Shown: piece after piece, positions 4,607 to 51,710 of the stretch | Position numbering within the stretch: position 1 is the first letter of the stretch | How the letters are laid out: every line of letters begins with the position of its first letter | Source: an uncultured Acidobacteriota bacterium | Lineage (GTDB): Bacteria; Acidobacteriota; Thermoanaerobaculia; Multivoradales; SZUA-115 | Length of the DNA: 64,000 bases | Assembly: GCA_963805975.1 (NCBI GenBank) | Contig: CAWDVR010000002.1 | Span: 1,056,001-1,120,000, forward strand | Reading direction: 5' to 3' | The notes under the pieces: generated by a model | What the model saw: only the letters and a program-made list of their open reading frames with translations | What the model was told of the DNA's origin: nothing | Databases searched by the model: none | Made by a program: the position numbers and the translations under genes

Positions 4607-4618
4607 GCGAGCCTCCCG

Positions 4619-11889: not shown

Positions 11890-13215
11890 TCACCCCGCCC
11901 CAAAAACCTTCGGCGTCGGCATCCGCGCACGGATCTCTTCCAACACGGTGGCGGTCACCAGGTCCACGCCGTTCTTCGCGCACCATCCCTCGACGGCCCG
12001 CGTCACCATGCCGCGCACGAAGGCCGGGATGCGCTGCATGCGCTCGCGGGCGTCGGGCTCCCAGGTGAGGGTGATGCTCGCGGCCTGGCCGTACTCGACG
12101 GCGGCGGGTCGCAGGCGGTCCACTGCCGCCTGGAGGGTGCCTGGCTGGTGGGTACAGAGGGGATCCTCGGCCATCAAATCGCCGGTCATGCCGTAGGCTC
12201 GTGCCCGGCAGCCGCCGCACAGGCTCTTGAGCTCGCAGGGCCCGCAGCGCCCGCCGAGGTGCTCGCGCTGGCGGATGCGGGTGAAGAGCTCGGAGCTGTC
12301 CCACAGCTCGCGCAGGCCCGTGTCTCCCAGGTTGCCGGCGAAGAGGGGCAGATAGGGGCAGGGCGTGACGTCGCCGTTGGGCCGTATCCCTAAGTAGTGG
12401 GTGCCGGCCGGGCAGCCTCCGGCGCCGCCGCCGAAGCTCTTCGGAAAGGGTGCCGGCGAGTCCGACGACAGCAGCGTGCGGACGAAGTGCGGCGCGCACT
12501 TGGCGTTGACCAGCATCTTCGAGGACCAGCGCCGCTGGATCTCGGCCAGCTCCCCCAGCACCTGGTCGTACTCGGCGGGATCGAGGTCGCTGACGAAGGA
12601 ACCCCGGCCGCTCGGCACCAGGAAGTAGAGGTTCCACACCTTGGCGCCAAGCTCTTCGTGGGCGAAGGCGGCGAGCGCCTCGAGCTCGTTGCGGTTGTGC
12701 GCGCCCACCGTGGTCTGCACGATGAACGGCAGGCCGGCGCGGGTGAGGATCTTCGCGCCCTCGACCGTGTTCTGCCAGGCGCCGCGCACGCGGCGGAAGG
12801 TGTCGTGGCGCTCCGGGTCGAGCGCGTCGAGCGACAGCGCAAGGCCGCGCACGCCTTCGGCCAGGAGGATCTGCGCCAGGTTCTCGGTGATCTTGACGCC
12901 GTTGGTGCCGACCACGACCCAAAGATTCTGCTGCACGCCGTAGCGGATGATCTCGACGATGTCGCGACGCAGCAGAGGCTCGCCGCCGGTCAGGATGGTC
13001 ACGCACTCGGGAGCGAAGGCGGCGATCTCGTCGATCACCCGGTAGCACTGCTCGGTCGAGAGCTCACTGCGGTCGGCGAACGCCGGGCTCTTGACCTTGC
13101 CGGGGCCGGCGTCCAGATAGCAGTGCTCACAGGCGAGGTTACAGCGGTAGGTGAGGTTCCACGACACCACGTAGGGCCGCTCGAACCCGCCCGCGCTCCC
13201 GACGAGATCGGCCAC
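11890..13215 (-). CDS. Radical SAM/SPASM protein (AhbD/NirJ-like) with a C-terminal PCP_red-like domain
   Basis: WNLTYRCNLACEHCY, LTGGEPLLR, SPASM Cys set CPAG..PC..CGPC..CGGCRA..EDPLC; tail WEPDARERMQRIPAFVRGMVTRAVE. Confidence 0.88.
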   Translation of the reverse strand: MADLVGSAGGFERPYVVSWNLTYRCNLACEHCYLDAGPGKVKSPAFADRSELSTEQCYRVIDEIAAFAPECVTILTGGEPLLRRDIVEIIRYGVQQNLWVVVGTNGVKITENLAQILLAEGVRGLALSLDALDPERHDTFRRVRGAWQNTVEGAKILTRAGLPFIVQTTVGAHNRNELEALAAFAHEELGAKVWNLYFLVPSGRGSFVSDLDPAEYDQVLGELAEIQRRWSSKMLVNAKCAPHFVRTLLSSDSPAPFPKSFGGGAGGCPAGTHYLGIRPNGDVTPCPYLPLFAGNLGDTGLRELWDSSELFTRIRQREHLGGRCGPCELKSLCGGCRARAYGMTGDLMAEDPLCTHQPGTLQAAVDRLRPAAVEYGQAASITLTWEPDARERMQRIPAFVRGMVTRAVEGWCAKNGVDLVTATVLEEIRARMPTPKVFGAG

Positions 13216-13218
13216 GGG

Positions 13219-13692
13219 TCACATCCCGAACCGCGTGCGGGCCGCGGAGAGGACGGCTTCGTCGATCAACGCGTGACCCTCTTCCCGCGCCACCATCTCG
13301 ATCCCGGCGCGGGCCATGGGCCGCACCATCTCCGGGATGGCCTCGAGCCGCGCCAGCGCACCGGCCGTCCACTCGGGGCCGCTCGGGACAACCATGGCTT
13401 GCGCCTCGGACGGCTGCGTGGTGCCGCCGAGCATGGCCGAGAAGGGACACCTGCCGGCAGGGGCCTCCGCAGGCACTGCCGCCATCCCCGGGTTGGCGAT
13501 CGCCGCCGCCGCGGCCGGGCCGATGCGGACCCCCAGGGAGCGCACCATGTCGGTCTCGTGCTTGTTGGTCAGCATCGCCATCTCGTAGCCGCAGGCCGGG
13601 CAGCTATAGACCACGGCCAGCGAGCCCGGCTCGCTCTCCTCGGTGGCGCGGAGCCGCATCGGCGTGTCGCAGGGAACGCAGAGAAATTTCAT
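13219..13692 (-). CDS. Zn-ribbon + CP motif + PCP_red-like domain protein
   Basis: CVPC...CPAC, GRCPF, WTAGALARLEAIPEMVRPMARAGIEMVAREEG. Confidence 0.8.
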   Translation of the reverse strand: MKFLCVPCDTPMRLRATEESEPGSLAVVYSCPACGYEMAMLTNKHETDMVRSLGVRIGPAAAAAIANPGMAAVPAEAPAGRCPFSAMLGGTTQPSEAQAMVVPSGPEWTAGALARLEAIPEMVRPMARAGIEMVAREEGHALIDEAVLSAARTRFGM

Positions 13693-13735
13693 CGAGCCTC
13701 TCCCACTTCAGGAAGCGATCGGACGGCTGGATCCT

Positions 13736-13821
13736 GCTCGAGCTCCAGGCTGCCTTGGGAGGAGCGCAGCGTTACCCGCAGGGGCGTCGAGCACCGCACC
13801 AAGGCAGCCTGGAGCTCGAGC
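13736..13821. repeat. Perfect 23-bp inverted repeat with a 40-nt spacer
   Basis: GCTCGAGCTCCAGGCTGCCTTGG (13736-13758) and CCAAGGCAGCCTGGAGCTCGAGC (13799-13821). Confidence 0.9.
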
Positions 13822-13890
13822 TGTGCACCGCTGACGGCTAACAGTACCGCAGGTCCGGCGCTTCCGAGCGAGGCAGCCGACACAGCGAAG

Positions 13891-16546
13891 CTAGTCGCTG
13901 CGCAGGGACTCGATCGGGTCCACGCTGGACGCCCGGCGTGCGGGCAGGTAGCTCGCGAGCACGCCGACGCCGACCATCGCGGCGGACATGCCGCCGAACG
14001 TCGGCGCGTCCAGGGCGGCGACGCCGAAGAGCAGGCTGGCGACGGCGCGGGTGGAGGCGAGCGCGGCCACCAGGCCCAGGGCGACGCTCACGCCCATCAT
14101 GCGCGCCCCCTGCGCCACCACCATGCGCCGGACCTGCGCGGTGGTGGCGCCCAGCGCCATCCGGACGCCGATCTCGCGAGTGCGAGCGGCGACCACGTAG
14201 GAGAGCACGCCGTAGAGGCCGATCGCGCCGAGGACCAGGGCGAGCGAGGACAGGACCCCGAGCGTCAGCATGGTGAACGACAGCTCTGCCATCGAGTCCG
14301 CGGCGAGCCCCGTCATGGTGAAGGTGCGGTACATCGGCGCCTCGGGCGCGACCTCGCGGACCAGGGCACGGATCTCCGGCGCGATCGTCTCGGCGCGCGC
14401 GGTCTTGACCACGTAGGCCGGCGAGCTGATCGTCCAGCTCATGGGCTCCGGGCCCACCAGCGGCAGGTAGACGAGCGCCTGCGGCGTCTCCCGGAAGCCG
14501 TCCTGCTTCACGTCCTCGACGACCCCCACGACCGTGTGCCAGCCGGGCTCGCTCCGCGCCTGGAGGCGTCGCCCGAGAGGGTTCTGCCCCGGCCACAGCA
14601 GGTCGGCCGCCTGGCGGCTGACCACCGCGTTGCCGAGCGACGACTGGTGGTCGGCGGTCTCGAACGGCCGCCCGTCGAGCACCTCGATGCCCATCGTCCG
14701 GAAGTAGTCGCCCGCCGCCCAGGTGTAGTTGAGCAGCTTGCCGGCGTCCGGGTCGGCCGCCATCTCCTCGGTGATGAACGGGTCGCTGCGGGTGCCTTCG
14801 TTGAGCGGCACGTTCTCGACCAAGCCCACGGAGCGGACGCCCGGCAGCGCCGCCAGGCGCGCCAGGAAGTCGAGGTGGAAGCGGCTCCACGCCGGGCCGT
14901 CCGCCAGCCGCTCCTGCTCGGGAGCGAACTGGAAGGTGAAGACGTCCCGCGTGTCGTAGCCGGGGTCCACGTGGCGGAGCGCCTGGAAGCTCCTCACCAG
15001 GAGGCCCGAGCCGATGAGGAGCACGAGCGCCAGCGCCGTCTGGCCCACCACCAGGGCGTCCCTCACCCACCTCCGCCCGCCGGTCGCGCCGCGCCCGCCG
15101 TCACGCAGTCGGGTCAGGTCCGACCCCGAGGCGCGGAGGGCCGGAATGACGCCGCAGGCGAGGCCCGAGAGAAGCGCCAGGACGACGGTGAAGAGGAGCG
15201 TGGTGACATCGAGGCCCACGTCGTCGAGCCGGGGGATGCCCTCCGGAGCGGCGCGCAGGAAGATCGGCCCGACCAGCACGGCGAGCAGGATCGCGAGCCC
15301 GCCGGCGAGCACGGCCACGATCAGGGACTCCAAAATCTGGAGGCGAATCACCTGGCCTCGGGAGGCACCGATGGCCCGCCGCACGGCCAGGTCGCGGTAC
15401 CGCCCCTCGGCGCGCACCAGGAACAGGTTCGCGACGTTGGCGCAGGCGATCAGCAGCACGACACCGACCGCACCCAGAAGGACCCAGAGCGGCCGCGCCG
15501 CGGAGCCCAGGAGCTCGTCGAGCAGCGGCCGCACCACGGCGCGGTGCTGGCCGATCACGCGGGCATAGGCCGCCGAGCCGCCGAAGCGCTCCGGCAGCCG
15601 CCGGGCGAGCAGTGGTGAGCTCGTCGGCCAGCGTCGCGGAGGTCGCGCCGGGCGCCAGCCGGGCCACGAGGTTCGCTCCGAAGCGACCGGGCTCGAGCCC
15701 CTCGGGGCGGATCACCCTGGGGATCCAGAGCAGGGTGCCGCTGTTCGGGAACTCGAACTCCGGCCCCATCACCGCGATCACCTCGCGGCGCTCGCCGGCG
15801 ATCTCGTAGGTGCGCCCGACGACCTGCGGGTCGCCGCCGAACCACGAGTGCCAGAGCGTGTCGCTCATCACCGCCACCCGCGTCTCGTCCTCCTGCACTG
15901 GCAGGCGCCCCAGGGCCGGCTGCGCCCCGAGCGTCGAGTAGAGCGAGTTGGTGGTGATCGCCATGCGGATGCGCTCGACGCGGTCGTCGGTACGCAGAGT
16001 CGCAGTGAAGGTGTTGTAGCTCGCAACGTCCTCGAGCCGGCGCGAGCTCTCCCGGTACTCGAGGAAGAACTCCGGCGCTACGCCGAACTCGTCCTCGAAG
16101 TCCGACCCCGGCGCCGTGGCGGAGATGGCCACCAGCCGGTCGGCGTGCGCGAAGGGCAGCGGGTCGAGCAGGATCGTGTTGACGACGCCGAACATCCCGG
16201 CGTTGGCGCCGATGGCGAGCGCCAGCGTCCCCACGGCCGTGAGCGTGAAGGCGGGCGTCCGCCGCAGGGCGCGCGCCGCGTGGCGCAGATCGGTGGTCCA
16301 CTCGCTGATCATGTTCTGCCTCTCTGCGGGTAGCCTCCGGCCCGCCCAGGATGGGTGCCAGCGCTCTCTCAAACCGGATGTAGCGAGGTCCAGGACCGCG
16401 CCCAGGGCGAACCGGAGCGCCGCCAGCCGGCCGCGTCCACGGGCGTCGTCGAGGTCGCGCTCCACCTGTTCGACGATCTCCGCGCCGAAACGGTCACGGA
16501 ACGGCTCCGGGAAGAGCCACAGCAGGACCGCGAAAAGCACCCTCAC
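13891..16546 (-). CDS. ADOP-type duplicated MacB/FtsX ABC permease (frameshift near 15605)
   Basis: DLRHAARALRRTPAF, LALAIGANA, LLIACANVANLFLVR, GLYGVLSYVV..RTREIGVRMALGA, PARRASSVDP; split over ORFs 15101-16546 and 13891-15558. Confidence 0.88.
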
Positions 16547-16866
16547 GAGCGGCCCGCCAGGCCGAGGCGCTCTTCCGCCAGGGCGGCAGTACCCCGGAGG
16601 CGGCGCGCCTCCGCCGCCAGCATCCGGCGTCCGGCCGCGGTCAAGGCGTAGTACCGGCGCGCCAGGCCCGGATGCGGTAGCTCCTCCTTCGGCCGCTCCT
16701 CGACGACGAGACCCACGGTCATCAACCGTGCCAGGACCCGGTACAGGGAACCGGCACGGGGCTCGAGCGCGCCGGACGACTCGCTCGCGATCGCCTCTTT
16801 GATGGCGTAGCCGTGGAGCTGACCATTCGCCAGCGCCAGCAGCAGGTGGTACTCGAGGTTGCTCAT
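16543..16866 (-). CDS. PadR-family transcriptional regulator
   Basis: HGYAI, GSLYRVLARL, RRYYALTAAGR; stop overlaps the permease start. Confidence 0.9.
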   Translation of the reverse strand: MSNLEYHLLLALANGQLHGYAIKEAIASESSGALEPRAGSLYRVLARLMTVGLVVEERPKEELPHPGLARRYYALTAAGRRMLAAEARRLRGTAALAEERLGLAGRS

Positions 16867-16909
16867 GCCGGCGTCACTCCTTAGCTCCCGGGCTCCAAAC
16901 GGCCCAGGG

Positions 16910-16930
16910 TAATTACGCAGTGCGTAACTA
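16910..16930. promoter_or_regulatory. Palindromic operator upstream of padR
   Basis: TAA-TTACGCA-G-TGCGTAA-CTA. Confidence 0.6.
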
Positions 16931-17845
16931 TTCCGAAAGAGTATTTGCCGGGAGGCGACTTGTCAAAACCTGGTCTTCGGATGGCTCACCGAGGCACTCG
17001 AGCAAAGCTCGCGACACGGTTGCCAGCGCGACTAAGGTCGGGCTTGCCTCGGTGATCGGCAGCCCCTGGTCGGAGAGCGCTGCGAGCTGCGGATCGAAGG
17101 GCACGCGGCCCAGGCAGGGCAGGGCGATCTGCTCCGCTCCTTCGGCAACGGGAAAGAGCGGGCGCACCGTGCCGCAGCCGGCGCAGGCGTAGCCGCTCAT
17201 GTTCTCGATGTAGCCGAGCAGGCGGTTCGGCAGCGGCGAGAGCGCATCGACCGAGCGAGCCACCACGCCCCGCGCCAGGGCGGAAGGGATCGAGACCAGC
17301 ACCACCGCGGCGTCGGGACCGAGGAAGTCCGCGAACTGGGCGGTGCGCTCCGGGCCCGGCGGCAGGTCCACCAGCAGCAGGTCGAGCGGGCCCCAGTGGA
17401 TCGCCGCCAGCAGCTCCGCCAGCTTGGCGAACTCGCGGGTGGCGCGCCAGACGTGCGAGTGCCGGGGCGACGCGCTGGGCCAGGAGAGCGCCTCGCCGTC
17501 GGCCAGCAGGCTCCCCACCGAGAGGATCTTCAGGCCGTCGCGGCTCACCGGCAGCAGCAGGCCCTCCTCGCCGGGCAGCGGCGGCACGTCTGCGACGCCG
17601 CCCAGCAAAGCCTGGCTGGGGCCGTTCACGTCGGCGTCCAGGATGCCCACCTTCCGGCCTCGCGCCGCCAGCACGGCACCGAGCTGCCGGGTGAGCGTGC
17701 TCTTGCCGACCCCGCCCTTGCCCGACCCCACCGCCACCACGTGGCGGATGCCGGACATGCGCCGGGCGATGGCCGCCTCCAGCTCGGCGACCTGTTCCGC
17801 AACGCCCGAGCCGCCGTCGCCTGCGATCTGCGAGTACGTGCGCAT
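16928..17845 (-). CDS. Mrp/NBP35 (ApbC-like) P-loop ATPase, Fe-S carrier family
   Basis: GSGKGGVGKST, LDADVNGPS, DLPPG, IENMSGYACAGCG. Confidence 0.88.
   Translation of the reverse strand: MRTYSQIAGDGGSGVAEQVAELEAAIARRMSGIRHVVAVGSGKGGVGKSTLTRQLGAVLAARGRKVGILDADVNGPSQALLGGVADVPPLPGEEGLLLPVSRDGLKILSVGSLLADGEALSWPSASPRHSHVWRATREFAKLAELLAAIHWGPLDLLLVDLPPGPERTAQFADFLGPDAAVVLVSIPSALARGVVARSVDALSPLPNRLLGYIENMSGYACAGCGTVRPLFPVAEGAEQIALPCLGRVPFDPQLAALSDQGLPITEASPTLVALATVSRALLECLGEPSEDQVLTSRLPANTLSE
16938..16966 (-). promoter_or_regulatory. Sigma70-type promoter for padR-ADOP, embedded in the 3' end of the mrp gene
   Basis: Minus strand TTGACA (16961-16966), N17, TACTCT (16938-16943). Confidence 0.6.
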
Positions 17846-17857
17846 GGCGGAGGGATC

Positions 17858-18729
17858 CTATGCCGCCTGCGCCCGGGTCGCGAACAGGAGGTGCTCCGAC
17901 GCCGGGCTCGAAACCGAGCTCAGCGAGGAAGCTCGGTTCGATTTCTCCCGGCGCGACCCGCGGGAAGACGAGGGAGGCTTCCCCCTCGGCCGGCGGGCCA
18001 GGTCTCTCGATCAGCACACTCAGGCCCAGCCGGCCGAGATCTCCTGCAAGGAGGCCCATCGTCAGGATCTCCCGCCCTTCGGCGCCCTGACGATAGAGAA
18101 CCCAGGCTTCGAGCCGCTCGGACGGAATGGAACCCGAGCCCGAGAAGCTGGTCCTCGAGCTTCGACAGGGCCGGAAGGTCGCGGTGCCAGCAGCGAGCAC
18201 CTTCCTGCGTCGAGTCGAGCTGCCCGCCGTCGATCAGATCCTGGAGAGAGATGGGGGCCACGGCTTCACCTGCCGCAGCCTCGTCAGCGGCCGGCTGCAA
18301 GCTCTCGCAACGCCAGTCCATCAGCCGTGCCTCCACGTCCCAGCCGCAGGCCGAGAAGACGGCGCAGGCCGCCTCGCGCTCCGCCGGCACCTCGGCGACG
18401 AGCTTCGGGGGACCCAGGATGGCGAGCTTCTGGCCGAGCGAGGTGAGGAGGTGCCGCCCGTGCCCTCGCCGACGGTGCTCGGGGTGGACGCGGAGACCGT
18501 AGATCAGCGTTGCGGCAGGGCGCTTCGCCCCGAGGAGAACTCCCACCGGCTCGCGCCCTTCGAGCGCCACCATGCAGCTACTGCACCACAGGTCGATCCC
18601 GCGCACGAGCTGCTTGAAACCCTGGAGGTCCAGCGCCGGCGTGCCCGCGTCCTCCGGGCCGCGGCAGCTCTCGTAAGCCGCGACGAGGAGGCCCATGTCG
18701 TCCGTGCGGCAGAAGCGGTAGGCGGTCAT
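17858..18729 (-). CDS. GNAT-family N-acetyltransferase (frameshifted near 18125 and 17905)
   Basis: Acetyl-CoA motif VHPEHRRRGHGRHLL; the 3' part continues in other frames to TAG at 17858. Confidence 0.65.
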
Positions 18730-19289
18730 GAAGGGTTGGTGCCGAAGCCAGCCGTCTCCATCACCTTCCTGGCTTGCAGCAGATGGCGCTGCTCGTGGGC
18801 GACGAGGATGCGGAAGGCATCGAGCAGGCTGTAGGTGATGAGGCTCGTGACCGGAGAGGTGATGATGATCTTCGCGGCCTTCAACGGCTCGGAGGCTTTC
18901 ATGTACCGGATGACCTGCTCCTGCTGGTCGAGGAAGCGCTGGAGGATCGCCCCATCCACGCTGCTGGCAGTCGGCTGGAAGATCTTCGGGGCCCTGAGCT
19001 TGGGCTTGGAGTCAGGGCTGACGGACCGGATCATCATCCTTCCCCACAGAGCCGGGAGCCCCGGCACCCTCTCCCAGAAGGCGCTCTTCTTGGTTCCGTT
19101 CAGGATGGCGTCGAAGAGGGGGAAGTACTCCCCATTGGCCGTCACCAAGTGGTCGAGGCACTGACCGACGCTCCACCGGTCCGGACCCGGCTTCCAATTG
19201 AGCTGCTGCGGGGTGAGGCCGGAGAAGACAGCCCGGGCTTCCTCGGTGATCGCGTTGGCGGCGGCGATCAGCTCGGGCCAGGTTGGCAC
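18726..19289 (-). CDS. DinB-family protein
   Basis: LNWKPGPDRWSVGQCLDHL ... HEQRHLLQA His triad. Confidence 0.85.
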   Translation of the reverse strand: MPTWPELIAAANAITEEARAVFSGLTPQQLNWKPGPDRWSVGQCLDHLVTANGEYFPLFDAILNGTKKSAFWERVPGLPALWGRMMIRSVSPDSKPKLRAPKIFQPTASSVDGAILQRFLDQQEQVIRYMKASEPLKAAKIIITSPVTSLITYSLLDAFRILVAHEQRHLLQARKVMETAGFGTNPS

Positions 19290-19341
19290 GGAGCATCACA
19301 CTTGCCATCGAAGCTCATGGACAGGACGGCACGTGAAAGCA

Positions 19342-19405
19342 GTCATTCCCGCGCCGGCGGGAACCCATCCGCGTTCGTGCCGTCGAGGAGTCGATGGACT
19401 CCCGC
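19342..19405. repeat. REP-like element of the GTCATTCCCGC...GCGGGAA type, right arm truncated
   Basis: GTCATTCCCGCGCCGGCGGGAACCCAT ... ATGGACTCCCGC. Confidence 0.6.
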
Positions 19406-21597
19406 TTACCCGCCTTCCAGCTCCGGATGCGGTCCGGCCCGGCGGGCCTGGAGGGCCGAGGGCGAGCCCACCTCGTTGATCGGCGGCTTGCGGTCGGCGG
19501 ACGGTGCCTCGGGAGCGGGCGCTGCATGGCTCGCGTCCGCCGGAGGTGCTGCCTCGTGGCCGGGTGCGCCATTGCCGCTCGCATGGGGCGCGCCGGCGGA
19601 GACCACGTCGGTGCTCACGCCTTTCGCCGCCGCCTGGTTCTTGAGCATCTCTTCCATCATCTGCCGGCCGATGGCGATGCCCTCCTCGACCAGCGCCAGA
19701 TTGATGGCATCACGGCCGCGCTCGGCTGCCAGGGCCTCGATGCGGTCCTGGGTGCGGTTGCGCATGAAGCCTGCCGGCACGCGCAGGATGCGCTCCACGG
19801 CCTCGCCGTGCCAGGTGAAGGCGGAGAGCAGCGGCACGTGCTTGGCGTCGCGCGCGATGAGGCGCTTCTCGCCCGTCCGGAGCCTCCGGCCCGTGGGCCG
19901 GTGCCGCGTGCCCGTTGGCCGTGCCGTTGGGAGCCATCTCCTCGGCGCTTCTTCCATCGATGCCGTGGTCGGCGCGTCGCCCGCGGCGGCGATGCCGTCG
20001 CCCAAGGGCACGCCGGTCTCCTCTTCGACCACTTGCTGCGCCAGCTCGAGCGTGATGGTCGGGAGCTTGCGCAGCCGCGCCGTCTTCTCGATGCGCGCCT
20101 TGGCCCGCCGGCGCTTGTAGGCGTCCTTCAGGGTCCACAGCGCGCGGCGCGCGCTCTCGCTCCACTTGAGCTTGCGGCCGTCGTAGGTGACCTCTTCGGT
20201 GAGGGCGCCCTCGGCGCGCGCGATGCGGTCCAGCGTCTCGCGGTCGATGCGCTCGAGGTCGCCGCTGCCGCAGACCCCGCAGCGCACCGCGTCCGGCTCG
20301 CTCGCCGCCACACCGCAGCTCTTGCAGATCGCCACCGGCTGGCGCTCGGCGAGCTCGAGCGCCATGCGCTCGGCGAGCTGGAAGGTCACGTCCCGCGCCT
20401 GCTTGGGCATGAAGCGGTCCATCGCCTCGTCGATCACCGAGTTGGTGACCACGCTGTGGCCCTTCTCGAGCGCCAGGCGCAGGATGCCGGTGCGCGCGAT
20501 GCCCTTGACCTGCGGCGGCACGCGCAGCATGCGCTCCTCGGCCTCGGGCGTCCACTTGATGCTCTCCTCGGCACGCACGTCGATGTCCGGGTAGGCGAGG
20601 CGGGTCGAGAGCAGCACGTCGCAGGGGCAGCGGCGGAGCAGGTTCTCGGTGTTGCTGCCCAGGCCGGTCTCTTCCGCCGGGCTGTGGACGCCGATGCGGC
20701 CGACGACCACCAGCCATGGGTTGGTCTTGCGCACGTGGTCGAGGATCTTCTGGAACGCCTTGCCGTCGAGCAGCGTCTTGGTCACCACCGTGCCGGCGTC
20801 GAGCGCCATGCGCTCGGCGACGTCCAGGTGCGACTGGTAGATCTGCGCCAGGCCGGTGTCGATGATCTCCTCGTGGAGCTGGTTCTGCTCCTCGAAGCGG
20901 AAGACCTTGGAGGCCTTCTCGGAGAGCACGCCGACGATGCCGTGGAAGACCGAGTAGTGAAGGTACGGGTCGTAGACGCCGATGATCTCGACCTTCTTCG
21001 TCGAAGCGCTCGGCGAGCCCGAGCGCCGTCTGGAGCGCTCCGAACGACTGCGGGCTGCCGTCGATGCCCACCAGGATGGTGTCGCCCTCGGGCTCGTCCT
21101 TCTTGGGCAGGTGCTTGACCACCCAGACGTCGCGGTTGGAGGTCCGCGCCACGCGATCGCAGACCGAGCCGATCTCGCTGTCCTTGACCCGGCCGATGCC
21201 GAGCGCGCCCGATCACCACCAGGTCGTAGTCGGCGCTCTCGATGTCCCGCACCAGCTCGGTGTGGTGCTTGCCGTCCATCATCCGCGGCTCGAAGGCCAG
21301 CCCGTTGTCCCGGCAGAGGTTCTCCATCTGGTCGAGGTAGCTCTCGGAGATCAGCTTCAGGCCGAGGGTGATCAGGCTGTCGTGGATCTTGCGCTGGCGC
21401 TCGAGCTCGACCTCGTCGAGGTACTCCTCGGGGAGCGTGTACTCCATCTGCTTGAAGCGGTAGTCGTGCATGCGGGCGGCGTAGACGTGGCAACCCACCA
21501 GCGAGGAGCCGAACGCCTTGCCGAGCGCGACGCTGTTGGCGATCGCCCGGTTCGAGAAGTCGGAGTTGTCGACCGGGACGTAGATCTTGCTATACAT
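19406..21597 (-). CDS. Tandem universal stress protein (USP-USP) fused to three PCP_red-like domains and a Zn ribbon (frameshifts near 21205 and 21000)
   Basis: MYSKIYVPVDNSDFS, TILVGIDGSPQS, LGSNTENLLRRCPCDVLL; WTPEAEERMLRVP, CKSC..CGVC, WSESARRAL, WHGEAVERILRVP. Confidence 0.82.
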
Positions 21598-23315
21598 GTG
21601 CTTGGACCTCTCCGTTGTCCTGGTTGCCCTGCCCGCCGGCAAGCTCTCGAGAGTTCCGGCGCCGCACCCACAGCGACCAGCAGGATCTCGACCGCCAGCA
21701 CCGCCACGGCGGCCCGCAGCATCGGCCAGACCGGCGACGGGGTCTCTCGCGGCATGGTGTACAAATACATCCACTGCGTCAAGCCCCGCTTGTTGCCGCG
21801 CTCGCGCTGGTGCCGTCCCAGAGCGAGAAGGCGACGGGAACGTACTGCCCCTCGGCGAAGGTCACGCTGCCGCTGCCGCGTAGCGCACGCTTCAGGATCA
21901 CCGACCACTCGCCGCGGTCGTAGCTCGCCACCGCCGCTCACGTCCTCGCCCTCGATCACGGTCAGATTGTCGCTTCCCGCGCCAGCGTAGCGTTGCACCA
22001 CCTTCGTCGCCAGGTCCACGAACCAGAGGTCGACCGGGTTCTGCGCGTCGCCGAACAGGAAATAGGGCTTGCGGATACCGCTCGGAAGCTGGGCCGGGAG
22101 CTGGATCGCGACCGCGTCGGAGAACTCGGTCTCGGGGCTGGTGGCCGCGGTGCCGCCGCCCTCGTCGCCCCAGAAATCGCCACCGGCGCCGTCCGCGGCC
22201 GGGGCTGCGTCCGCACCCCAGAAGTCCCCACCTTCGGCAGCGGCGGCCGCGGGCGCGGCTTCGTCACCCCAGAAGCCGCCCTCGCCTGCTGCCGGCGCGG
22301 CGGCGGCCTCGGCCTGGTCCTCCTCGGGCGGAACCACCAGGTCGGGCGCGTTGCGGCCCGCGACGTCGGCCCGCATGTCGTGCCAGGTGAGCAGGAAGGC
22401 GATCTCCCTGGCGTTGTAGACCGCTCGTACGGTGATGCCGTTGGCCGACGGATGGAACGCGCGGCCCGGCTCGGTGATCTGGCCGACGACCGGGAAGTAG
22501 GCCGGCGGCGCGGTGGCGAACGTTTCCTCGCCGCGCTCGAGGTCGATCTCGTCGGCCGTCCACTGGACCTGCAGCAGCTCGGAGTACGAGGGCGCATCGC
22601 GGGGATCGAGCGAGACGATGAAGTCCACCAGCTGCCAGCGCTGCTCGTCGGTGAGCGACTCGGCGAAGGACGGCATGGGCGTGCCGTTCATCCCGGTGGT
22701 GAAGGTGCGGTAGATGTCCTCGCGGGTCGGGCCGCCACGGTAGGTCCAGCGCTTGGTGAGGTCGGCAGGCCGGATCGAATGGTCCCAGTCGTCCTTCAAC
22801 GTGGGCGCCGAGGTGCCGTCGCCGCGCCCGAGCTCGCCATGGCAGGCCCCGCAGCCGATCTCGACGTAGACCTGCTTGCCTTTCTCGGCCGACTCCGTCG
22901 AGAACGACGGCGCCTTCGGGATGGTGAGCGCCGTGGGCTTGCGCTCCGGGTTCGCGAAGTCCGGCGAGAAGGACTTGACGGCGGCGATGAGCTGGTTGAT
23001 CTGCTCCTCGGAGAGGTGCTTCCAGCCCGGCATCGAGGTGTAGGGCATGCCCTCGCGCAGGATGTGCTGCAGGTCCTCGTCGGTGGGGAGCGCGCCGCTC
23101 GGCGTGTGCCGGACCTTGAACTTGGCCGAAGTGAAGTCGCGCGGGCGCGGCACCAGCCGCGGCGCCGCGATCCCTTGGCCGTCGCCCTGCTCGCCGTGGC
23201 ACTGGGAGCAGAGCTTCTGGTAGAGCTCTCCGCCGGGCGGGTTGTCCTGGGCAGAGGCCCCCGGCACCAGGAGCAAGGCGAACCCGAGAGCCGCCGCGAA
23301 CCGCACCCCCGTCAC
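21590..23315 (-). CDS. Exported dihaem cytochrome c with an EB_dh/DOMON-like haem-b domain and C-terminal TM anchor (frameshifts at ~21670-21930; 3' end approximate)
   Basis: Signal peptide, CSQCH..PRPRDFT..SMPGW, CGACH..GTPMPSF, then VRAVYNAREIAFLLTWHD, FSDAVAIQLP, PYFLFGD..PVDLW. Confidence 0.8.
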
Positions 23316-24136
23316 TCGTGCACCTCCTCGCGCGCCCGCGGCTGCTGCTCCGAGAAATCGTAGAGGAACAGGATCACGTCCCACATCTCTTCCTCGGTGA
23401 GGAACTTCTCCCACGCCGGCATGGCGGTGTCCCAGGGGCCGGCCTCCTCGGGCAGGCCGGGGCCGCCCTTGCCGATGCGCCAGAAGAGGAAGGACTCCTG
23501 CAGCAGCGCGATGGCGCCGCCATCCGCGAAGTTGGTGGGGATCGGGTTCAGGCCGTGCGCGAACATCCCGTCGCCCCGCATCGCGTCGCCGTGGCAGTAG
23601 AAGCAGTTCTGGTAGTAGACCCGCCGGCCGTTGGCCAGGTGGCCGGCGAAGGCGGTCGGGTCGCTCTGCTCGAGCGGGCGGTAGGGATTGTCGAGCTTCA
23701 CCAGGTCGAACTGCTTGTCGTGCACCGTGATCGAGTCGGGCGGCGCGGGGTGGATCGTGCGGCCGAAAGCCGGCGCCTCGAGCTTGACGTTCATGCGCCG
23801 GTAGACCCCGAACGCCACCAGCGCCGGGATCAGCAGGACGACCGCGTAGAGCAGCGGGCGCCGCCGGGGCTCGAGGCACAGGCGCACCAGCGGCCCGGTG
23901 AACGCCTGCAGCCGCTCGCGGCTGGAGGTGACGTAGGCCACGGTCGCCAGGGTGACGATGCCCATGTAGAGCGAGATCACCGACTGCGGCACCGGGACCT
24001 TGAACCCGAAGCGCAGGAAGACCCAGACCGAGAACCAGGTCACCACGGTCCACAGGAACGAGCCGGCGCGGCGCTGGCGCAGCAGGAACTGCACGGCAAG
24101 GAGCGGCAGCACCACCCAGAGGACGATCGGGTTCAT
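23312..24136 (-). CDS. Membrane-anchored monohaem cytochrome c
   Basis: 3-4 N-terminal TM helices, YYQNCFYCHG, LFWRIGKGG, TAMPAW. Confidence 0.88.
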   Translation of the reverse strand: MNPIVLWVVLPLLAVQFLLRQRRAGSFLWTVVTWFSVWVFLRFGFKVPVPQSVISLYMGIVTLATVAYVTSSRERLQAFTGPLVRLCLEPRRRPLLYAVVLLIPALVAFGVYRRMNVKLEAPAFGRTIHPAPPDSITVHDKQFDLVKLDNPYRPLEQSDPTAFAGHLANGRRVYYQNCFYCHGDAMRGDGMFAHGLNPIPTNFADGGAIALLQESFLFWRIGKGGPGLPEEAGPWDTAMPAWEKFLTEEEMWDVILFLYDFSEQQPRAREEVHE

Positions 24137-24180
24137 CGCATCATGTCCTTTGCCGGTCCCTCATCTCAGTGGCCCCTCTC

Positions 24181-24753
24181 TCAGTGGCTGGGGACCGGGG
24201 CGGGTGCCTCGGCGCCAGCCTCACCGCCGGCCGGGGCCGCCGCGGGGGCGCCCGCCGCCACACCGGCGCCGCCGGCCTGCCAGGGCAGCTTGGTCTCCAG
24301 AGTGACCGTGGTGGTCCCGCCGAGGCTCTGCAGGTAGGCGATGACGGCGAGGATCTCGTCGTCGGTCAAGCCGATCGGCGGCTTGCTGATCGCTGGCATG
24401 CCGGGGTTGAAGCCCGGCACGATGAACTTGTCCGGCTCGTAGAGCGACTGCGCCAGGTACTCGACGTCGGAGAGGCCGGCGATCCGGGTCGCGGCGCGGG
24501 CGCCGATGCCCTCGAGGTCCGGGAAGCGCAGCGCTCCCGACTTGCCCACCGTGTGGCAGGTGAAGCACAGGCCCTTGCCGTCCATGATCTCGCGGCCGAC
24601 CTTGAGCATCTGCTCCGGCGTCATGTCCTTGCTGAGCACCACCTCCGCGGGCGGATGCACTTCCTTCTGCGGCACCAACTGGCCGACATACGTGTAGAAG
24701 CCGGTCGTGGCGACCGTCAGCGCGGCGATGCGCAGGCTCACGGGGACCTTCAC
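24181..24753 (-). CDS. Monohaem cytochrome c with an N-terminal anchor
   Basis: GKGLCFTCH, YLAQSLYEP..IVPGF..GMP. Confidence 0.88.
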   Translation of the reverse strand: MKVPVSLRIAALTVATTGFYTYVGQLVPQKEVHPPAEVVLSKDMTPEQMLKVGREIMDGKGLCFTCHTVGKSGALRFPDLEGIGARAATRIAGLSDVEYLAQSLYEPDKFIVPGFNPGMPAISKPPIGLTDDEILAVIAYLQSLGGTTTVTLETKLPWQAGGAGVAAGAPAAAPAGGEAGAEAPAPVPSH

Positions 24754-26632
24754 GCGACCGCTCCCAGGTCCGTGGAGCTCGGCCCAGGGGGCTCGCCGGG
24801 GGAGGAGAGCTCACCTTGGGCTCCCAGTCCTTCTTGCCGCCCAGGCTGGCGAGCCAGAACACGAAGCCGATCAGCAGGAAGAAGATCAGCACGGTCACCG
24901 AGACCACCTGGGTGGCAAAGCCCAGCGTGGGGGTGAAGGCGTCCACCGAGGTGTCGCGGATGACGCCGTAGACGTGCCAGTGCTGGCGCAGGCCCGAGCG
25001 CACGTAGCCCATCAGCCCCATCAGCCAGGTGAAGGTGACGGCGATGAAGATCAGCACGTACTGGGAGATGGGCGCGATCTGGCCCCAGCGCGGCTCGCCG
25101 GCCTTCTTGGCGTTCCTGAACATGAAGACGTCGATCACCGTCACCGCCACCATGGCGAAGAGCACCGACAGCACCTGCGGCACCGAGAACGCGATGCGCA
25201 CGGAAGCCTCGACGAAGTAGCCGTAGACACCGAGGAAGATCACGAACGCCGCGACGCCGACGAAGATGCCGAGCTGCGCGCGGTTGCCCGCCTTCGCCCA
25301 GGGGACGATCGGGGTCTTACCGCTGCGGCGATAGAGCAGGAAGCTCACGAAGGTGGTGAGGATCAGGATGTTGACCGCGGTGTTCTTGGCCGACATGACG
25401 CCCAGGAATTGCAGGGCGGGGTGGGCGGAGCCGCCCATCGCCCGAATCTCGGACACGGTCGAGATGATCGAGCGCGGCGTCGCCCAGACCGCGAAGCAGA
25501 GCGCCACCAGGATCAGCAGGTACTTGATGTACTTCTGGAACTTCTCGGCGCCGGCGATCCGCCCCATCCCCAGCCACAGGTAGTAGTTGGCGCCGAGGAA
25601 GAGGTTGCCGATCAGCACCGCCTGGATGATGAACAGCCAGGAGAAGGCGCCGCCCATCATGGTCAGCCCCAGCGTCTGGGAGTAGGCGTAGATCTCCTTG
25701 GCCAGGTAGTAGCCGGCGAAGGGCAGCGGCAGGAAGGCGCAGATCGCCACGAAGTTGCCGATGTAGCCCATCCAGTCGTAGTGGGCGCGCTCCTCGTCGG
25801 TCTTCGCCCCCAGGAACTTGAAGGCGGCGTAGGCCGCGGCCACCGAGCCGCCGAAGGCGACGTTGGCGATGATGCGGTGGACGTTGATCGGCATCCAGGT
25901 GTAGTTGCGCACCGCGTCCCAGGTGCTGATCAGCGCGCCGGTCTCGGAGATCCCCGACGGCGAGGTCATGAAGGTGAGCCAGGCGTTGGCGATCAGCATG
26001 ATCGCCGTGCCGACCACGTTCAGGCCCACTCCCAGGAGCAGGTGGACGCGGGGCGAGAACTTCCCCCAGCCGTAGTAGTAGGTGTAGAGGAAGAAGGCCT
26101 CGAAGAAGAACAGCCCGACGTAGGGCAGGAAGGTAGGCGAGAAGACGCTCACCAGGTAGGTGGTGAACTTCGGGTAGAGGATGATCAGCCCGAAGGTCAG
26201 CATCGCCCCGAACGTCGCGGTGAGCGAGAACGACACCGAGAGCAGCTTGGTGAACTCGTGCGCCAGGCGGTCGTAGCGCGGGTCCTTGGTGCGGTAGCCG
26301 ATGAACTCGATGATCAGCGCGAACATCGGCACGGCCAGCACGAAGGCGGCGAAGAGCAGGTGGAGCTGGGCCGCGATCCAGACCGCGACCCGGCTGCCGA
26401 TCCTGGGGAAGGCGCGGTACTCGGCGTCGACGTAGGGCTTCTCCCGGTCCTTCTGCTCCTGCTCGGCGTGCTGGTCGGCGAGCCCCTCGTCGCGCGGGGT
26501 CTCGACGACCTCGCCGCCCGGGGTGCTGGTGGGGGCCCGGTACTCCCGCTTGAGGAGCAGGGTCGAGACGCCGACGATCATCGCCAGCCCGAGGAGCGCG
26601 ACCAGGCCGGCGGCGAGACCCTTCTTCATCAT
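24750..26632 (-). CDS. Cytochrome bd subunit I (CydA)-like oxidoreductase of the Nitrospira 'bd-like'/OR-N type; stop at 24750 needs one indel near 24790-24830
   Basis: QLHLLFAAFVLAVP, FFFEAFFLYTY, IANAWLTFMTSP, NVHRIIAN, MGYVRSGLRQHWHVYG; ~13 TM helices; GTGA overlap with the next gene. Confidence 0.82.
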
Positions 26633-27300
26633 GGCGTCACCTGCTGCGGTGCAGCCGGGGTGGTCTCTGCCGGGACCGCGGGGGCCGGGGCGGCCGGGTT
26701 GGGAGCGACCTGGGGCGGCATGGTCCCGCCGGAGCGCTCGACGCGCCGCTGCTGGAGCGCACGCAGGTGCACGATGATCGCCCAGCGGTCCGCGACGGGG
26801 ATCGGGTAGCGGTACGCGGGCATCAGGCCGAAGCCGTTGGTGATGGTGTCGAAGAGCTGGCCGTCGGGCATCTGGCGCAGCCGGTCGTCGTGGAACGACG
26901 GGGTCGGCACCTTGCCGCGCTCGAAGAGGATGCCCTTGCCGTCGCCGTTCTTGTCGTGGCAGACCGCGCAGTAGATGTCGTAGCGCCGCGCACCGCGCTC
27001 GCGCACCGTCTCGTCCACCGCCATCGGCACCGCCATGACGAACGTGCCGGCGGCGTCCTTGCCCGTCCAGTAGGGGCCGTCGTCCCGCAGCTCGCCGCGC
27101 GCCACGGTGCCGGGAACCGGCGGCCGCATCGCCTTGCCGTCGTAGAAGAAGGCGCTCGCCGCCTGGGGCTCGTAGCGCGGCTGCACGTCCATGTTGGGAT
27201 TCATATGGATCGGCGGCCGGCTGGAGGTGCAGCCGCGGGCGCACCCGGAGAGGGCGAGGAGGACGAGACCCAGGGCCAGGTGCTGGCTGCGCCGGCTCAC
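26629..27300 (-). CDS. actE: ACIII monohaem lipoprotein ActE, copy 1
   Basis: Lipobox [46 protein letters not shown]. Confidence 0.9.
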
Positions 27301-27304
27301 GCCC

Positions 27305-30300
27305 CTAAGCCTCCACCAGCTCGGGATGGGGGTTGCGGATGCGCGCCAGGTAGCTGGTGCGCGGCCTGTTGCCGAGCTCGGCCAGCAGCACGTAGTTGCG
27401 GCTGCTCTGCTTGCGCGCGCTCACCTGGGCTTGCGGGTCGCGGATGTCGCCGAAGACGATCGCCTGCGTCGGGCAGGTCTGCTGGCAGGCGGTCTGCACG
27501 TCGCCGTCGGCCAGCGGGCGCTCGGCCATCTTGGCGTCGACCCGGGCGCGCTGGATGCGCTGCACGCAGTAGGTGCACTTCTCCATCACGCCGCGCGAGC
27601 GCACGGTGACGTCCGGGTTGGCCGCCAGCTTGAGCAGCTCGGGCGTGTCCTTGGTGTAGTTGAAGAAGTTGAACCGCCGCACCTTGTACGGGCAGTTGTT
27701 CGAGCAGTAGCGGGTGCCGATGCAACGGTTGTAGACCATCGCGTTCGAGCCCGTCGGCGGTGTGCACGGTCGCCGCCACCGGGCAGACCTGCTCGCAGGG
27801 GGCGTTCTCGCACTGCTGGCAGGGCATCGGCTGGAACACCATCTCCGGCGTCTCGGGCGGGCCGGAGAAGTAGCGATCGAGGCGCAGCCAGTGCATCTCG
27901 CGGCCGCGGCGCACCTGCTCGTGGCCGACGATGGGGACGTTGTTCTCGCTCTGGCAGGCGACGACACAGGCGTTGCAGCCGGTGCAGGAGTTGAGGTCGA
28001 TCGCTCATGCCCCACTGCGGGCCTTCGTCGTACCGGTGCTCGGCCCAGAGCGGCCCGCTCTTCGGGATCTCCACCATCTCGTCCGCGAAGTGCGGCTCGT
28101 GGCGCCATTCCTCGAGGGTGGCCTCGCGCACCACCGGCCGCCCCTCCATGCTGCCGTGATCCTGGGTCTGGGCGATGCGGTGCCGGTTGCCGGAGGCCTC
28201 GAGCGCCGCGCCGGAGACGAAGCCGAGCGCCGTGCTCGTGCGCAGCGGATAGACGTTGGCGCCGACCCCGCTGCCTACCCGGCCGGCCGCGGCCGCCCGT
28301 AGCCGAGGTGCACGACGACGGTCTCCTCGGCCTGGCCGGGCACGATCCACACCGGCAGCTCGACCTCGGCCTCGCCCAACCGCAGGCGGGCGCCGTCCTC
28401 GTTGGCCAGCCCCAGGCGCTCGGCGGTCTTCGGGGCGAGGAGAGCGGCGTTGCCCCAGGTCAGCTTGGTCACGGCATCCGGCAGCTCCTGCAGCCAGCCG
28501 ACGTTGGCGAAGCGCCCGTCGTGCACCGCCGGCGAGGCCCTGAACGACAGCTCGAGGCCCGCGGCAGCCGCGCCGGCCAGCCCTGCGGCAGCCTCGGCCG
28601 GCAGCGCCGCCACAGGCAGCGAAACGGGAGCCGGCGCACTCCCTGGCAGGAGACCGTCGTGGAGCACCTTGTTGAAGGCGTTGTCGAAGGCGGTCGCGGG
28701 CCCGGAGACCGGCAGCAGCGTCCTCCAGGTCTCCCGCACGAGATCGTACGCCGTCTTCTCTTCGCCGCTCGCCAGGAGGCCCAGCACCTCGATGGCGCCG
28801 TGGCCGCCGAACAGCGGCTCGATCAGCGGCTGCACCACGCTCACGGTGCCGTCCGCCGCCCTGCAGTCGCCCCAGGCTTCCAGGAAATGGGCCTCGGGAA
28901 GGTGCCAGTCGGCGCGCGCCGCGGTCTCGTCCGCCGCCAGCCCGAGGTGGACGACGTTCTCCACCTGCTCCAGGGCCGACTCGAAGGCGAGGTCCGCGGG
29001 CGCGTCGTAGACCGGGTTCCCGCCCAGGACGACCAGGGTCGAGACCTGGTTGGCGCGCAAGGCGGTCACCAGGGCCGAAAGCTCCGCGGTGCTGGGAGCC
29101 AGCACGTCGACCGGCTCGCGCAGCAGGACCGTCGTCCCCACGTTGCCGAGCGCGGCGTTGATCGCCAGCGCCAGAGCGTGCACCGAGGGTGGCTGATGGC
29201 GGCCCGCGATCACCAGGCTCGCCCCCCGGTTCGCCACCAGGTCCTTGGCCATGACTGCGACCCAGCGCATCGCTTGATCCGAGGCGGCCTCGGCGCCCGT
29301 GACGGGCAGCGCGAGCGGCACGCCGGCCGCGGCGAGCGCCCGGCCCAGCGCCAGCGCGAAGCTGCCGATCTGCCCGGCGGGCAGGGCCAGGCGGTGGTCG
29401 GCCATCGCTCCGGTCGTGGTGTGGGCGCTCTCGACCACCCACAGCCGGTTCATCGCGTCCTCTTCCGAGGCGAGCCGGCGGCCCGCGGCAAAGCCGCGAG
29501 CGTGGGCCACGGCGTTGCTCTCGGCCAGGAACAGGTCGGCATCCAGGCTCACCACCACCCGCGCCGCGCCGAGATCGTAGGTGGCCTTGAGCGGCCGTCC
29601 GGCCAGCAGCGCCGCGCCGGCGAGCGCGTTCTCGTCGCTGACCGGCTCCCAGGTGGCAGCGCGCATCAGGGGAAAGCGCTGGCGCAAGGCCGCGAACAGC
29701 CGGTACAGCGTGGGGGACGACGAAGGCGTGGCGAGCACCGCCAGCCCGGCGCCGCCGCTCGCAACGAAGCCGGCCTCGAGCGCCTTCCAGGCGGCTACGA
29801 ACTCGGCCCAGCTCTTGCGTATGGCGCCCGCGGCGGCAGTCGTTTGCAGCACGTGCTGCGAGCGGTCCGGATCGTAGAGGCCCAGGATCGAGGCCTGCAT
29901 CTGGGCGCTGGCGCTGCCGGCGGTTCCCGGATGGAGCTCGTTGCCCTCGATCTTGGTCGGCCGACCCTCGTGGCTCTCGACCAGCAGGCCGTAGCCCTCG
30001 ATGCCGAAGGGCATGGTCGTGGCGTAGCGTCTCGGGATGCCCGGCACCGTCTCTTCGGGGGGCGCCACGAAAGGCACGATGTTCTCGACCGGCCGACGGC
30101 AACCGGCGAGCCCGGCGAGCGACAGGGAAGCCCCCAGGAGCTGCACCAGCGACCGGCGATCGATGCCCTCCGGCAGCTCCGACGCGCCCTCGGGGAACTC
30201 GCGCTCGAGGAAAGCCCGTGACTCCGGGCTGTCGGCCAGTTGCTCGAGGCTGCGCCAGTGCTCCCGCTCGCGCCGCCGCGGTTCCCCGCCGCCCCCACAG

Positions 30301-30383
30301 CCGCAGGCCGAGCCGCAGCCGCCGGAGGCCGAGCCCGGCTCACCGCCGGCGAGCTCTTCCGTGGGCTCGATCACCGGTGGCAC
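27305..30383 (-). CDS. actB: ACIII ActB (non-catalytic molybdopterin-fold domain + Fe-S domain), copy 1; frameshifts near 28285, 28005 and 27750
   Basis: HWRSLEQL, Tat-like [33 protein letters not shown]; [41 protein letters not shown]. Confidence 0.9.
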
Positions 30384-47819: not shown

Positions 47820-47911
47820 CGCCTTGTGGGAGAGCTGGGGGCTACGTTATCCTCTCGCCGGTTCCCACAGGCCGGCAGGCCCATAGAATCTCTAGCCGAG
47901 GCCCCTTGACG

Positions 47912-48562: not shown

Positions 48563-48600
48563 TATGTCACCGTTGAAAGAAAACTGGGTCACCGCCGAGC

Positions 48601-51710
<3,110 letters not shown>

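Follow-up and report, generated by a model that had tools for sequence, protein, structure and literature searches.

Organisation of the locus

The stretch of DNA analysed here (the window, 64,000 nucleotides) was taken from an uncultured Acidobacteriota bacterium (assembly GCA_963805975.1, contig CAWDVR010000002.1, positions 1,056,001 to 1,120,000), whose genome comprises 5.36 Mb and is 96% complete. It harbours a gene module centred on a tandem universal stress protein (USP) fusion and a radical S-adenosylmethionine (SAM) enzyme, both of which carry PCP_red domains. The module is a real, widespread and apparently undescribed accessory set, in which known protein families occur in a new combination and are tied to an uncharacterised oxidase family, and it is likely a cofactor maturation cassette. 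All module genes are located within the window on the minus strand, downstream of a gene for a CydA-like membrane protein (bd-like), which agrees with the shared orientation described in the original prediction for this DNA, a note made from the sequence alone. G- and L-numbers denote genomes and related loci, respectively, in the labels of this analysis. The module and the oxidase operon consist of the following genes:

11890..13215, minus strand: radical SAM/SPASM enzyme with a C-terminal PCP_red domain (copy 5), AhbD-sister clade, core member (Pfam, family profiles, tree)
13219..13692, minus strand: small Zn-ribbon protein of 157 amino acids with a CxxC/CxxC ribbon, a Cys-Pro-Phe motif and PCP_red copy 4, accessory (Pfam, homologues, AlphaFold2 (AF2) model)
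16928..17845, minus strand: P-loop ATPase of the Mrp/NBP35 type, containing GKGGVGKST and CxxC motifs, accessory (Pfam PF10609)
17858..18729, minus strand: GNAT acetyltransferase, frameshifted after ~18124, accessory, not in the original prediction (Pfam; follows the USP gene)
19406..21597, minus strand: tandem-USP fusion, start at 21597, core member (Pfam, relatives, AF2 model)
21590..24753, minus strand: three cytochrome c genes, the last abutting the USP start (mono-haem, 24181-24753; mono-haem, 23312-24136; di-haem with EB_dh domain, ~21590-23312, frameshifted)
24790..26632, minus strand: CydA-like bd-like membrane protein of the OR-N type, presumed client; the 3' end is approximate (Pfam PF01654 for the N-terminal part only, alignment, profile)
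26629..31018, minus strand: ActA, ActB (frameshifted) and ActE-like genes at the head of the operon (Pfam, synteny)

PCP_red domains

A motif recurring three times in the USP fusion (once in divergent form), once in the Zn-ribbon protein and once at the C-terminus of the radical SAM enzyme had been noted to resemble PCP_red. All five copies were found:

20423..20554, minus strand: copy 1, USP fusion (Pfam and genome-wide family search)
20030..20164, minus strand: copy 2, divergent, USP fusion (third Pfam stretch; start located separately; missed by the genome-wide search)
19682..19813, minus strand: copy 3, USP fusion (genome-wide family search)
13237-13371, minus strand: copy 4, Zn-ribbon protein (Pfam and genome-wide family search)
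11929-12063, minus strand: copy 5, C-terminus of the radical SAM enzyme (Pfam and genome-wide family search)

The copies thus start at positions 20554, 20164, 19813, 13371 and 12063. Their identity was borne out by matches to Pfam family PF08369 in residues 385-429 of the radical SAM enzyme (E 2e-11), in residues 108-152 of the Zn-ribbon protein (E 1.7e-11) and in three stretches of the C-terminal frame of the USP fusion (19406-21493, minus strand; E 1.6e-20); the scores of 44.2, 44.4 and 73.3 bits exceed the gathering cut-off of 32.5 bits. The small helical fold was recovered for the copy of the Zn-ribbon protein only, whose AF2 model matched the solved PCP_red structure 2KRU (Z 8.4, root mean square deviation 1.1 Å, 55 residues). 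A search of the whole genome with the family (E ≤ 0.01) yielded four matches, all above the cut-off and all at this locus, and the divergent copy alone was not detected; among 14 control genomes one (Synechococcus) had a match. Since the only matches of the genome are located here and one of 14 controls was positive, the occurrence of PCP_red at this locus is not due to chance. The predicted set of four PCP_red-built proteins was correct with regard to the five copies, but only three proteins carry them and the Mrp ATPase has none.

In sequence family and fold the copies correspond to the PCP_red domain of BchB/ChlB from dark-operative protochlorophyllide reductase (DPOR; PF08369; PDB 2KRU, 2L09 and 2YNM). 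In contrast to DPOR, the domain is repeated here on USP proteins and on the radical SAM enzyme, and neither DPOR catalytic subunits nor a BchL-type ATPase accompany it. Separately, a Manganitrophus-like locus (L117:14309-15322) encodes, after the radical SAM gene, a protein of 337 amino acids which consists of four PCP_red domains and contains no other Pfam family.

The tandem-USP fusion

The domain order of the fusion is USP-USP-PCP_red-CxxC/CxxC ribbon-PCP_red-PCP_red, with a length of about 710 amino acids when intact. In the window, one additional base near each of 21209 and 21000 distinguishes the gene from five of the five relatives shown. These two frameshifts are most likely assembly errors, because similar indels also break the ActB, di-haem cytochrome and GNAT genes and because both parts of the fusion lie in one open reading frame (ORF) in 94 of 98 related loci. 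The two sites were not listed in the displayed indel table of a sequencing-run search.

The family comprises 331 clusters at 50% identity (E ≤ 1e-30), the members of which hold between zero and six PCP_red copies each (Pfam), and it includes NKE72954.1 of Ca. Manganitrophus noduliformans. In the AF2 model (pLDDT 88, pTM 0.65) a long helical hairpin extends from each of the two USP domains, after which come PCP_red, the ribbon and two further PCP_red domains. The best fold match is the ATP-bound tandem USP 3AB8. The G-x2-G-x9/10-G-S/T nucleotide motif, the ATP motif of USPs, was recognised in the first USP domain of 76 of 88 sequences, and a looser version of it in the second domain of 51 of 88. 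The fold (E 1.6e-17) and the nucleotide motif of the first domain are shared with the tandem ATP-binding USPs TTHA0350 and Rv2623, whereas the module protein (~19% identity) adds histidine-bearing helical lids as well as PCP_red and CxxC appendages. Six histidines (His37, 44, 72, 213, 241 and 304) are kept in 84-87 of 88 diverse cores (33-100% identity). Four of them are located in the twin helical lids, where H44/H72 of the first hairpin align with H213/H241 of the second; the pairs point to a site for haem or a metal.

G325:C3, G417:C13, G527 and G022 (L246, L247, L250, L251, L101, L102) each have a second USP paralogue, one of the two being short, next to bd-like and cox3-like genes. The USP-PCP protein P0177 possesses an N-terminal PNPOx-like (split-barrel) domain (weak match, E 6e-5), a fold which includes haem-binding proteins.

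The bd-like oxidase and its operon

In an alignment with five canonical CydA sequences, the bd-like protein keeps the equivalents of His19, His186 and Glu107. It lacks the equivalent of Glu99, the KLAAxE segment of the Q-loop and the Glu of TEVGRQPW (Glu445 equivalent), and it has GLMGYVRSGLRQHWH instead. The numbering of His19, Glu99 and Glu107 follows bioRxiv 2021.01.16.426971, in which the OR-N type is defined by homology to CydA with His19 kept and the quinol-binding site absent, features that are all found in this protein. According to the same source, OR-N2 is often represented by a single cydA-like gene. The OR-N2 subfamily is marked by 14 transmembrane helices and by placement with published profiles or a tree; 12 segments were obtained here by crude hydropathy. 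The protein fits the OR-N type, and likely OR-N2. As judged from these residues, the haem site of the oxidase is non-canonical, which would account for a cofactor step of its own.

Clusters of the OR-N2/NIDE0901 type in Nitrospira, Nitrospina and Ca. Manganitrophus TO_1 (PMC3578206, bioRxiv 2021.11.15.468770) likewise contain a single CydA-like gene without quinol-site residues, together with cytochrome c and di-haem c/EB_dh genes. They differ in that the operon described here includes ActA/B/E and is followed by the module. In the published accounts covered, no maturation genes are described for these oxidases, and in PMC10839748 the composition and function of OR-N bd-like enzymes are stated to be still without experimental confirmation.

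The plus strand encodes ActC (NrfD), ActD and ActF-like proteins at 2586-5845 of the window, and some 21 kb separate these genes from actA/actB/actE (26629-31018, minus strand), so that the genes of a second alternative complex III are divided between two converging operons. A further act and cox cluster occurs at ~47900-59700 of the window. More than one bd-like paralogue per genome was seen in G337:C29, G468:C138 and G364:C160, in two of these in facing operons.

The radical SAM enzyme and the routes to haem b

Among family profiles, the radical SAM enzyme scored best with AhbD (TIGR04545, 295.5 bits) and NirJ2 (TIGR04055, 285 bits), both below the cut-offs of 500. These families outscored peptide maturases by more than 100 bits, and the AhbC and NirJ profiles gave 146 and 150 bits (cut-offs 650 and 515). 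AhbD-like proteins in ahbABCD context reached 490-496 bits and are themselves below 500. The CX3CX2C motif (C25/29/32) and eight SPASM cysteines (C240, 268, 286, 324, 327, 333, 336 and 354) are invariant in 76 of 76 sequences. Their spacing, C240-x27-C268-x17-C286-x37-CX2CX5CX2CX17C, fits the eight-cysteine motif published for AhbD (CX20-33CX17CX36-37CX2CX5CX2CX17-35C; PMC10452713).

In a midpoint-rooted tree of 56 radical SAM domains (short row L109 excluded), 31 module enzymes formed one clade (support 100/99) apart from 18 AhbD-like proteins. These references were AhbD-like proteins of the same phylum, two of them in ahbABCD context, and biochemically tested AhbD was not included. The C-terminal tails have a length of 64-103 amino acids in the module clade and of 5-24 outside, and Pfam confirmed PCP_red in the enzymes of L102, L107, L117 and L187. 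The module enzyme has WNLT..HCY, as do three AhbC/NirJ1-type proteins checked, and not the WE.T..HCR of the 18 AhbD-like proteins; of TCAPHYY in the same 18 proteins, it keeps the CAPH segment but neither the T nor the YY. Thus, the CX3CX2C motif, the full SPASM motif and CAPH are shared with AhbD/NirJ2, whereas the C-terminal PCP_red, WN..HCY in place of WE..HCR, the USP partner and the host genomes without ahbAB set it apart. The assignment to an AhbD/NirJ-type enzyme therefore stands as far as kinship is concerned, but not as membership, since the enzyme forms its own clade and scores below the cut-offs. On these sequence features it is classified as an AhbD sister enzyme with a putatively altered pocket and is not filed as AhbD, because of the separate clade and the changed motifs despite the full SPASM motif.

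Could this enzyme simply serve the formation of ordinary haem b? The own genome encodes HemN (at a distance of 5 kb from the window, with a score above the cut-off), ferrochelatase, HemY, HemE, CtaA and CtaB, and profile searches gave no ChdC, AhbA/B or AhbC above cut-off. Among the 23 module genomes of the phylum, HemN was found in 7, HemF in 10 and PF06778 (ChdC family) in 9; each of the 23 has at least one of the three, and no genome with PF06778 is among those with HemN or HemF. The AhbA/B family (PF17805) was found in 0 of 23, in comparison to 3 of 12 comparison genomes. Consequently, the housekeeping supply of haem b does not require the radical SAM enzyme. A housekeeping AhbD function as its sole role was rejected on these grounds, and the predicted dispensability of a housekeeping coprohaem decarboxylase was corroborated.

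A narrower form of this explanation would be a dedicated AhbD isoenzyme which converts coprohaem to ordinary haem b without oxygen or peroxide, with the USP channelling haem b to the bd-like oxidase at low oxygen. It would fit AhbD/NirJ2 as the best families, the SPASM motif exactly as in AhbD, the location of the radical SAM gene next to hemY in G282, G503 and G408, and some (automatic) JGI labels "AdoMet-dependent heme synthase"; moreover, an AhbD-like enzyme was proposed for anaerobic coprohaem decarboxylation (PMC10114771). Opposed to it are the separate clade with altered motifs on the active-site side, the lack of AhbA/B in the 23 module genomes, and the fact that 14 of these 23 have HemN/HemF without ChdC, so that coprohaem is not an expected intermediate, 7 of them with the oxygen-independent HemN. 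This explanation is considered unlikely, though it comes next after the reading proposed below, in which the product is a modified haem.

Genes for haem synthesis (ctaB, hemN, hemE, hemB, hemA, hemH, hemY) flank the respiratory cluster (G000:C2:1047000-1090000, window -9000 to 34000), and together they form a supercluster of haem synthesis and respiration. A second radical SAM-PCP gene (44% identical, upstream of USP) or a duplicated pair of Zn-ribbon and radical SAM genes was noted at L084:8750-10186, L093:8876-10186 and G129:C1:208793-210444. Between cox2 and the end of the radical SAM gene, a membrane-like ORF of 349 amino acids (10769-11818, plus strand) with lower GC content and without a Pfam or NCBIfam match was found, which is absent from the related loci displayed.

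Synteny, co-occurrence and the conserved core

A scan of GTDB genomes yielded 344 stretches with a relative, of which the best 80 were examined; these mostly carry the label Acidobacteriota. The series begins with actA-actB-actE and continues with bd-like, the three genes for cytochrome c, USP, GNAT, Mrp, Zn-ribbon protein and radical SAM enzyme, and it often converges on a cox operon (33 of 54 loci). Counting only loci with sufficient flank, the bd-like gene was located upstream of USP in 65 of 65 and ActA in 54 of 65; Mrp, the Zn-ribbon gene and the radical SAM gene were each located within 11 kb downstream in 37 of 54.

Gene presence was profiled, as had been suggested, in 301 genomes of the window's phylum (Acidobacteriota) and in 231 from a second phylum, centred on G301. 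In the first sample the USP fusion was detected in 23 genomes. With the bd-like query, 49 genomes gave a match: 23 had E<1e-100, whereas the other 26 (E>1e-21, identity not above 31%) represent canonical CydA. The radical SAM query detected 59 genomes, 23 of them with E<1e-97. The USP, close bd-like and radical SAM-PCP sets are the identical 23 genomes, representing 17 genera. In the second sample USP occurred in 11, bd-like in 10 and radical SAM-PCP (E ≤ 1e-75) in 8 genomes, and every carrier of a bd-like or radical SAM gene has USP, including 10 of 10 bd-like carriers; the expected co-occurrence with bd-like genes is thus well supported. USP without bd-like was seen in G301 only, on a contig of 2.3 kb, and G468 has a radical SAM fragment at a contig end.

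A search with the Manganitrophus USP gave 80 metagenome loci, of which the 58 with a length of at least 9 kb were counted. Judging from 60-95% identity, they would belong to Nitrospirota. The radical SAM gene is present in 51 of 58, in 50 directly downstream and in one divergent; of the 7 loci without it, three end within ~3 kb of the USP start. Mrp, GNAT and the Zn-ribbon protein were found in 0 of 58 at the threshold used. The accessory genes are likewise absent from G022, from G106, where only USP-USP-PCP and radical SAM-PCP follow the bd-like operon, and from 7 of 11 genomes of the second phylum. Because they are missing from many loci that keep the pair, the conserved unit is USP plus the radical SAM enzyme, with GNAT, Mrp and the Zn-ribbon protein as accessories. 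The proposed four-protein machine was rejected accordingly.

Accessory proteins

The Mrp ATPase scored 170.8 bits with PF10609, above the cut-off, and has the deviant Walker A and CxxC motifs, which are kept in 43 homologues. With a second Mrp on contig C3 of the same genome, the protein of the locus represents a dedicated paralogue. It resembles the Fe-S carriers of the Mrp/NBP35 class (ApbC, Cfd1) in the deviant Walker A and ENMS-x-x-x-CxxC, but its scores with the MrpORP and ApbC profiles are below the cut-offs (162/450 and 112/348). Its best PDB matches are Cfd1 and Fe-S carriers, and no BchL or NifH was among the matches at E ≤ 0.001.

This bears on the analogy drawn in the original prediction to DPOR and its ATPase ChlL. 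In a DPOR-like machine, Mrp would be a BchL-type ATP-driven electron donor which docks on PCP_red, and a tetrapyrrole would be reduced. PCP_red is common to BchB/ChlB, and the ATPase belongs to the same broad clan (Fer4_NifH 17.9 bits, below the cut-off of 25, E 0.002). Yet only the ~55-residue tail of BchB is matched and no BchN/BchB catalytic fold (NifDK-like subunits) occurs at the locus; the ATPase is of the Mrp/NBP35 class, lacks PCP_red and is missing from many loci. A DPOR- or nitrogenase-like system was therefore rejected as extremely improbable.

The Zn-ribbon gene adjoins Mrp in 42 of 43 loci and was detected in 25 of 34 USP-bearing genomes (21 of 23 in the first phylum, 4 of 11 in the second). 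Its Cys-Pro-Phe is invariant in 47 of 47 sequences, inside an otherwise variable linker, and resembles a haem-regulatory motif. For the N-terminal domain, the matches from fold searches were weak and confined to ribbons (NrdR, Z 4.2; ZPR1, Z 3.6), and the best match in the ESM Atlas (0.85) is a lead only. GNAT is regarded as a module member because it is located downstream of USP in 71 of 72 loci with room.

Proposed role of the module

The module is proposed, with a probability of roughly 0.4, to be a dedicated maturation set in which the radical SAM enzyme reworks side chains of an iron-porphyrin, likely not to plain haem b, and the USP holds the haem and hands it to the oxidase. The observations behind this proposal are the domain content, the synteny and co-occurrence, the radical SAM clade, the His and Cys motifs, the redundancy of haem b routes and the non-canonical haem-site residues. 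Haem as the substrate is suggested by the kinship to AhbD, the hemY neighbours, the histidine lids and the Cys-Pro motif. The AhbD-related enzyme would perform radical side-chain chemistry on the iron-porphyrin, and the tandem USP would keep substrate or product haem in its histidine lids and release it to the oxidase, possibly gated by ATP, as the nucleotide motif in 76 of 88 first domains suggests. Mrp, where present, might load the three predicted [4Fe-4S] clusters of the radical SAM enzyme, with the Zn/CPF protein as a partner. PCP_red domains may act as contact modules which tie the proteins together, and GNAT perhaps contributes a regulatory acetylation.

Several observations weigh against this proposal. 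The sampled genomes are related and the genes are linked, which inflates the co-occurrence; it may partly reflect linkage, i.e. kinship and an operon that moves as a block. In G005 and G022 the radical SAM-PCP gene is located beside an aa3-type oxidase operon rather than beside the bd-like gene, and a bd-like gene was found within the flank of 0 of 58 Manganitrophus-related loci at the threshold used. The PF06778 matches comprise five full-length and four partial ones, and the family includes chlorite dismutases. The histidine lids of the USP could hold a metal ion in place of haem. Finally, Gms, an AhbD homologue with 36% identity to AhbD, cross-links lipids (PMC11214058); homologues of AhbD can therefore use other substrates.

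The unlinked pairs could also mean that USP and the radical SAM enzyme are a general low-oxygen haem supply or quality control for respiratory complexes, which hitch-hikes with the bd-like operon. Besides the aa3 neighbours and the unlinked Manganitrophus-related pair, the cox operon converging on the module would suit this, as would the USP genes upregulated under low oxygen in Nitrospira marina, for which the family members are not identified (PMC8115632). None of the genomes without USP (278 of 301 and 220 of 231) has a close bd-like gene, though, and the co-occurrence persists in genomes whose radical SAM gene is placed on a different contig or next to a different operon (G005, G022, G325, G337, G417). 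A general supply function is thus quite improbable.

Another explanation starts from a non-haem feature: the radical SAM/SPASM enzyme would cross-link or modify residues of the oxidase, and the USP lids, Mrp and the Zn-ribbon protein would insert a metal (e.g. Cu or Fe), similar to metallochaperone ATPase/Zn-finger pairs. 5AUN-5AUQ, presumably the HypAB nickel-insertion pair, are among the structures of Mrp homologues, and Mrp adjoins the CxxC/CxxC protein almost throughout. SPASM enzymes include peptide maturases, Gms is a precedent, and a copper site was proposed for OR-N bd-like oxidases (PMC8115632). On the other hand, the tetrapyrrole enzymes AhbD/NirJ2 are closest by far, Mrp and the Zn-ribbon protein are dispensable, and the invariant Cys-Pro-Phe resembles a haem-regulatory motif. 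This is regarded as rather improbable, less so than a general haem supply, and haem modification remains the preferred reading.

Taken further, the haem of OR-N2 oxidases, which are presumed to be the terminal oxidases of Nitrospira, Nitrospina and the manganese-oxidising Manganitrophus, would be an undescribed one. A new radical SAM clade would produce it and a USP, the first known to carry haem, would deliver it, with PCP_red as a general docking tag in non-photosynthetic tetrapyrrole handling; in this full form the proposal is doubtful. Nitrite and manganese oxidisers of global importance are presumed to use OR-N bd-like enzymes as terminal oxidases (PMC10839748). A gene pair that tracks OR-N oxidases over two phyla tells what to co-express for production of the enzyme, and the module offers candidate new haem chemistry, a new role for USPs and a way to probe the function of PCP_red.

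Local insertions and further searches

The module genes are not contiguous in the window, where two insertions intervene:

13891..16866, minus strand: PadR and a frameshifted MacB/FtsX ABC permease, local insertion, non-member (Pfam; PadR in 2 of 54 and ABC in 6 of 54 related loci)
18726..19289, minus strand: DinB-family gene, local insertion, non-member (in 0 of 54 related loci for which 11 kb of downstream sequence exist)

Their rarity in related loci marks them as local insertions and not as members. A search of a plasmid collection matched nothing. The scan for promoters and terminators gave zero promoters and one terminator, which is located within the ABC gene; these numbers do not exceed those of shuffled sequence. 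The sequencing-run search returned only contigs of relatives (best share 0.16), with no reads of this strain and nothing usable on habitat or expression. No description of the module was found in the literature covered; subscription papers and supplements (OR-N operon descriptions and profile hidden Markov models of the bd superfamily paper, Nitrospira gene tables) lie outside this search and could mention the genes.

In both of the loci examined, the USP and radical SAM pair is followed by a gene for a small membrane protein resembling CopD (L117:15425-15889 and L187:13584-14099; weak Pfam match, E ~7e-5, below the cut-off), which is a possible link to copper.

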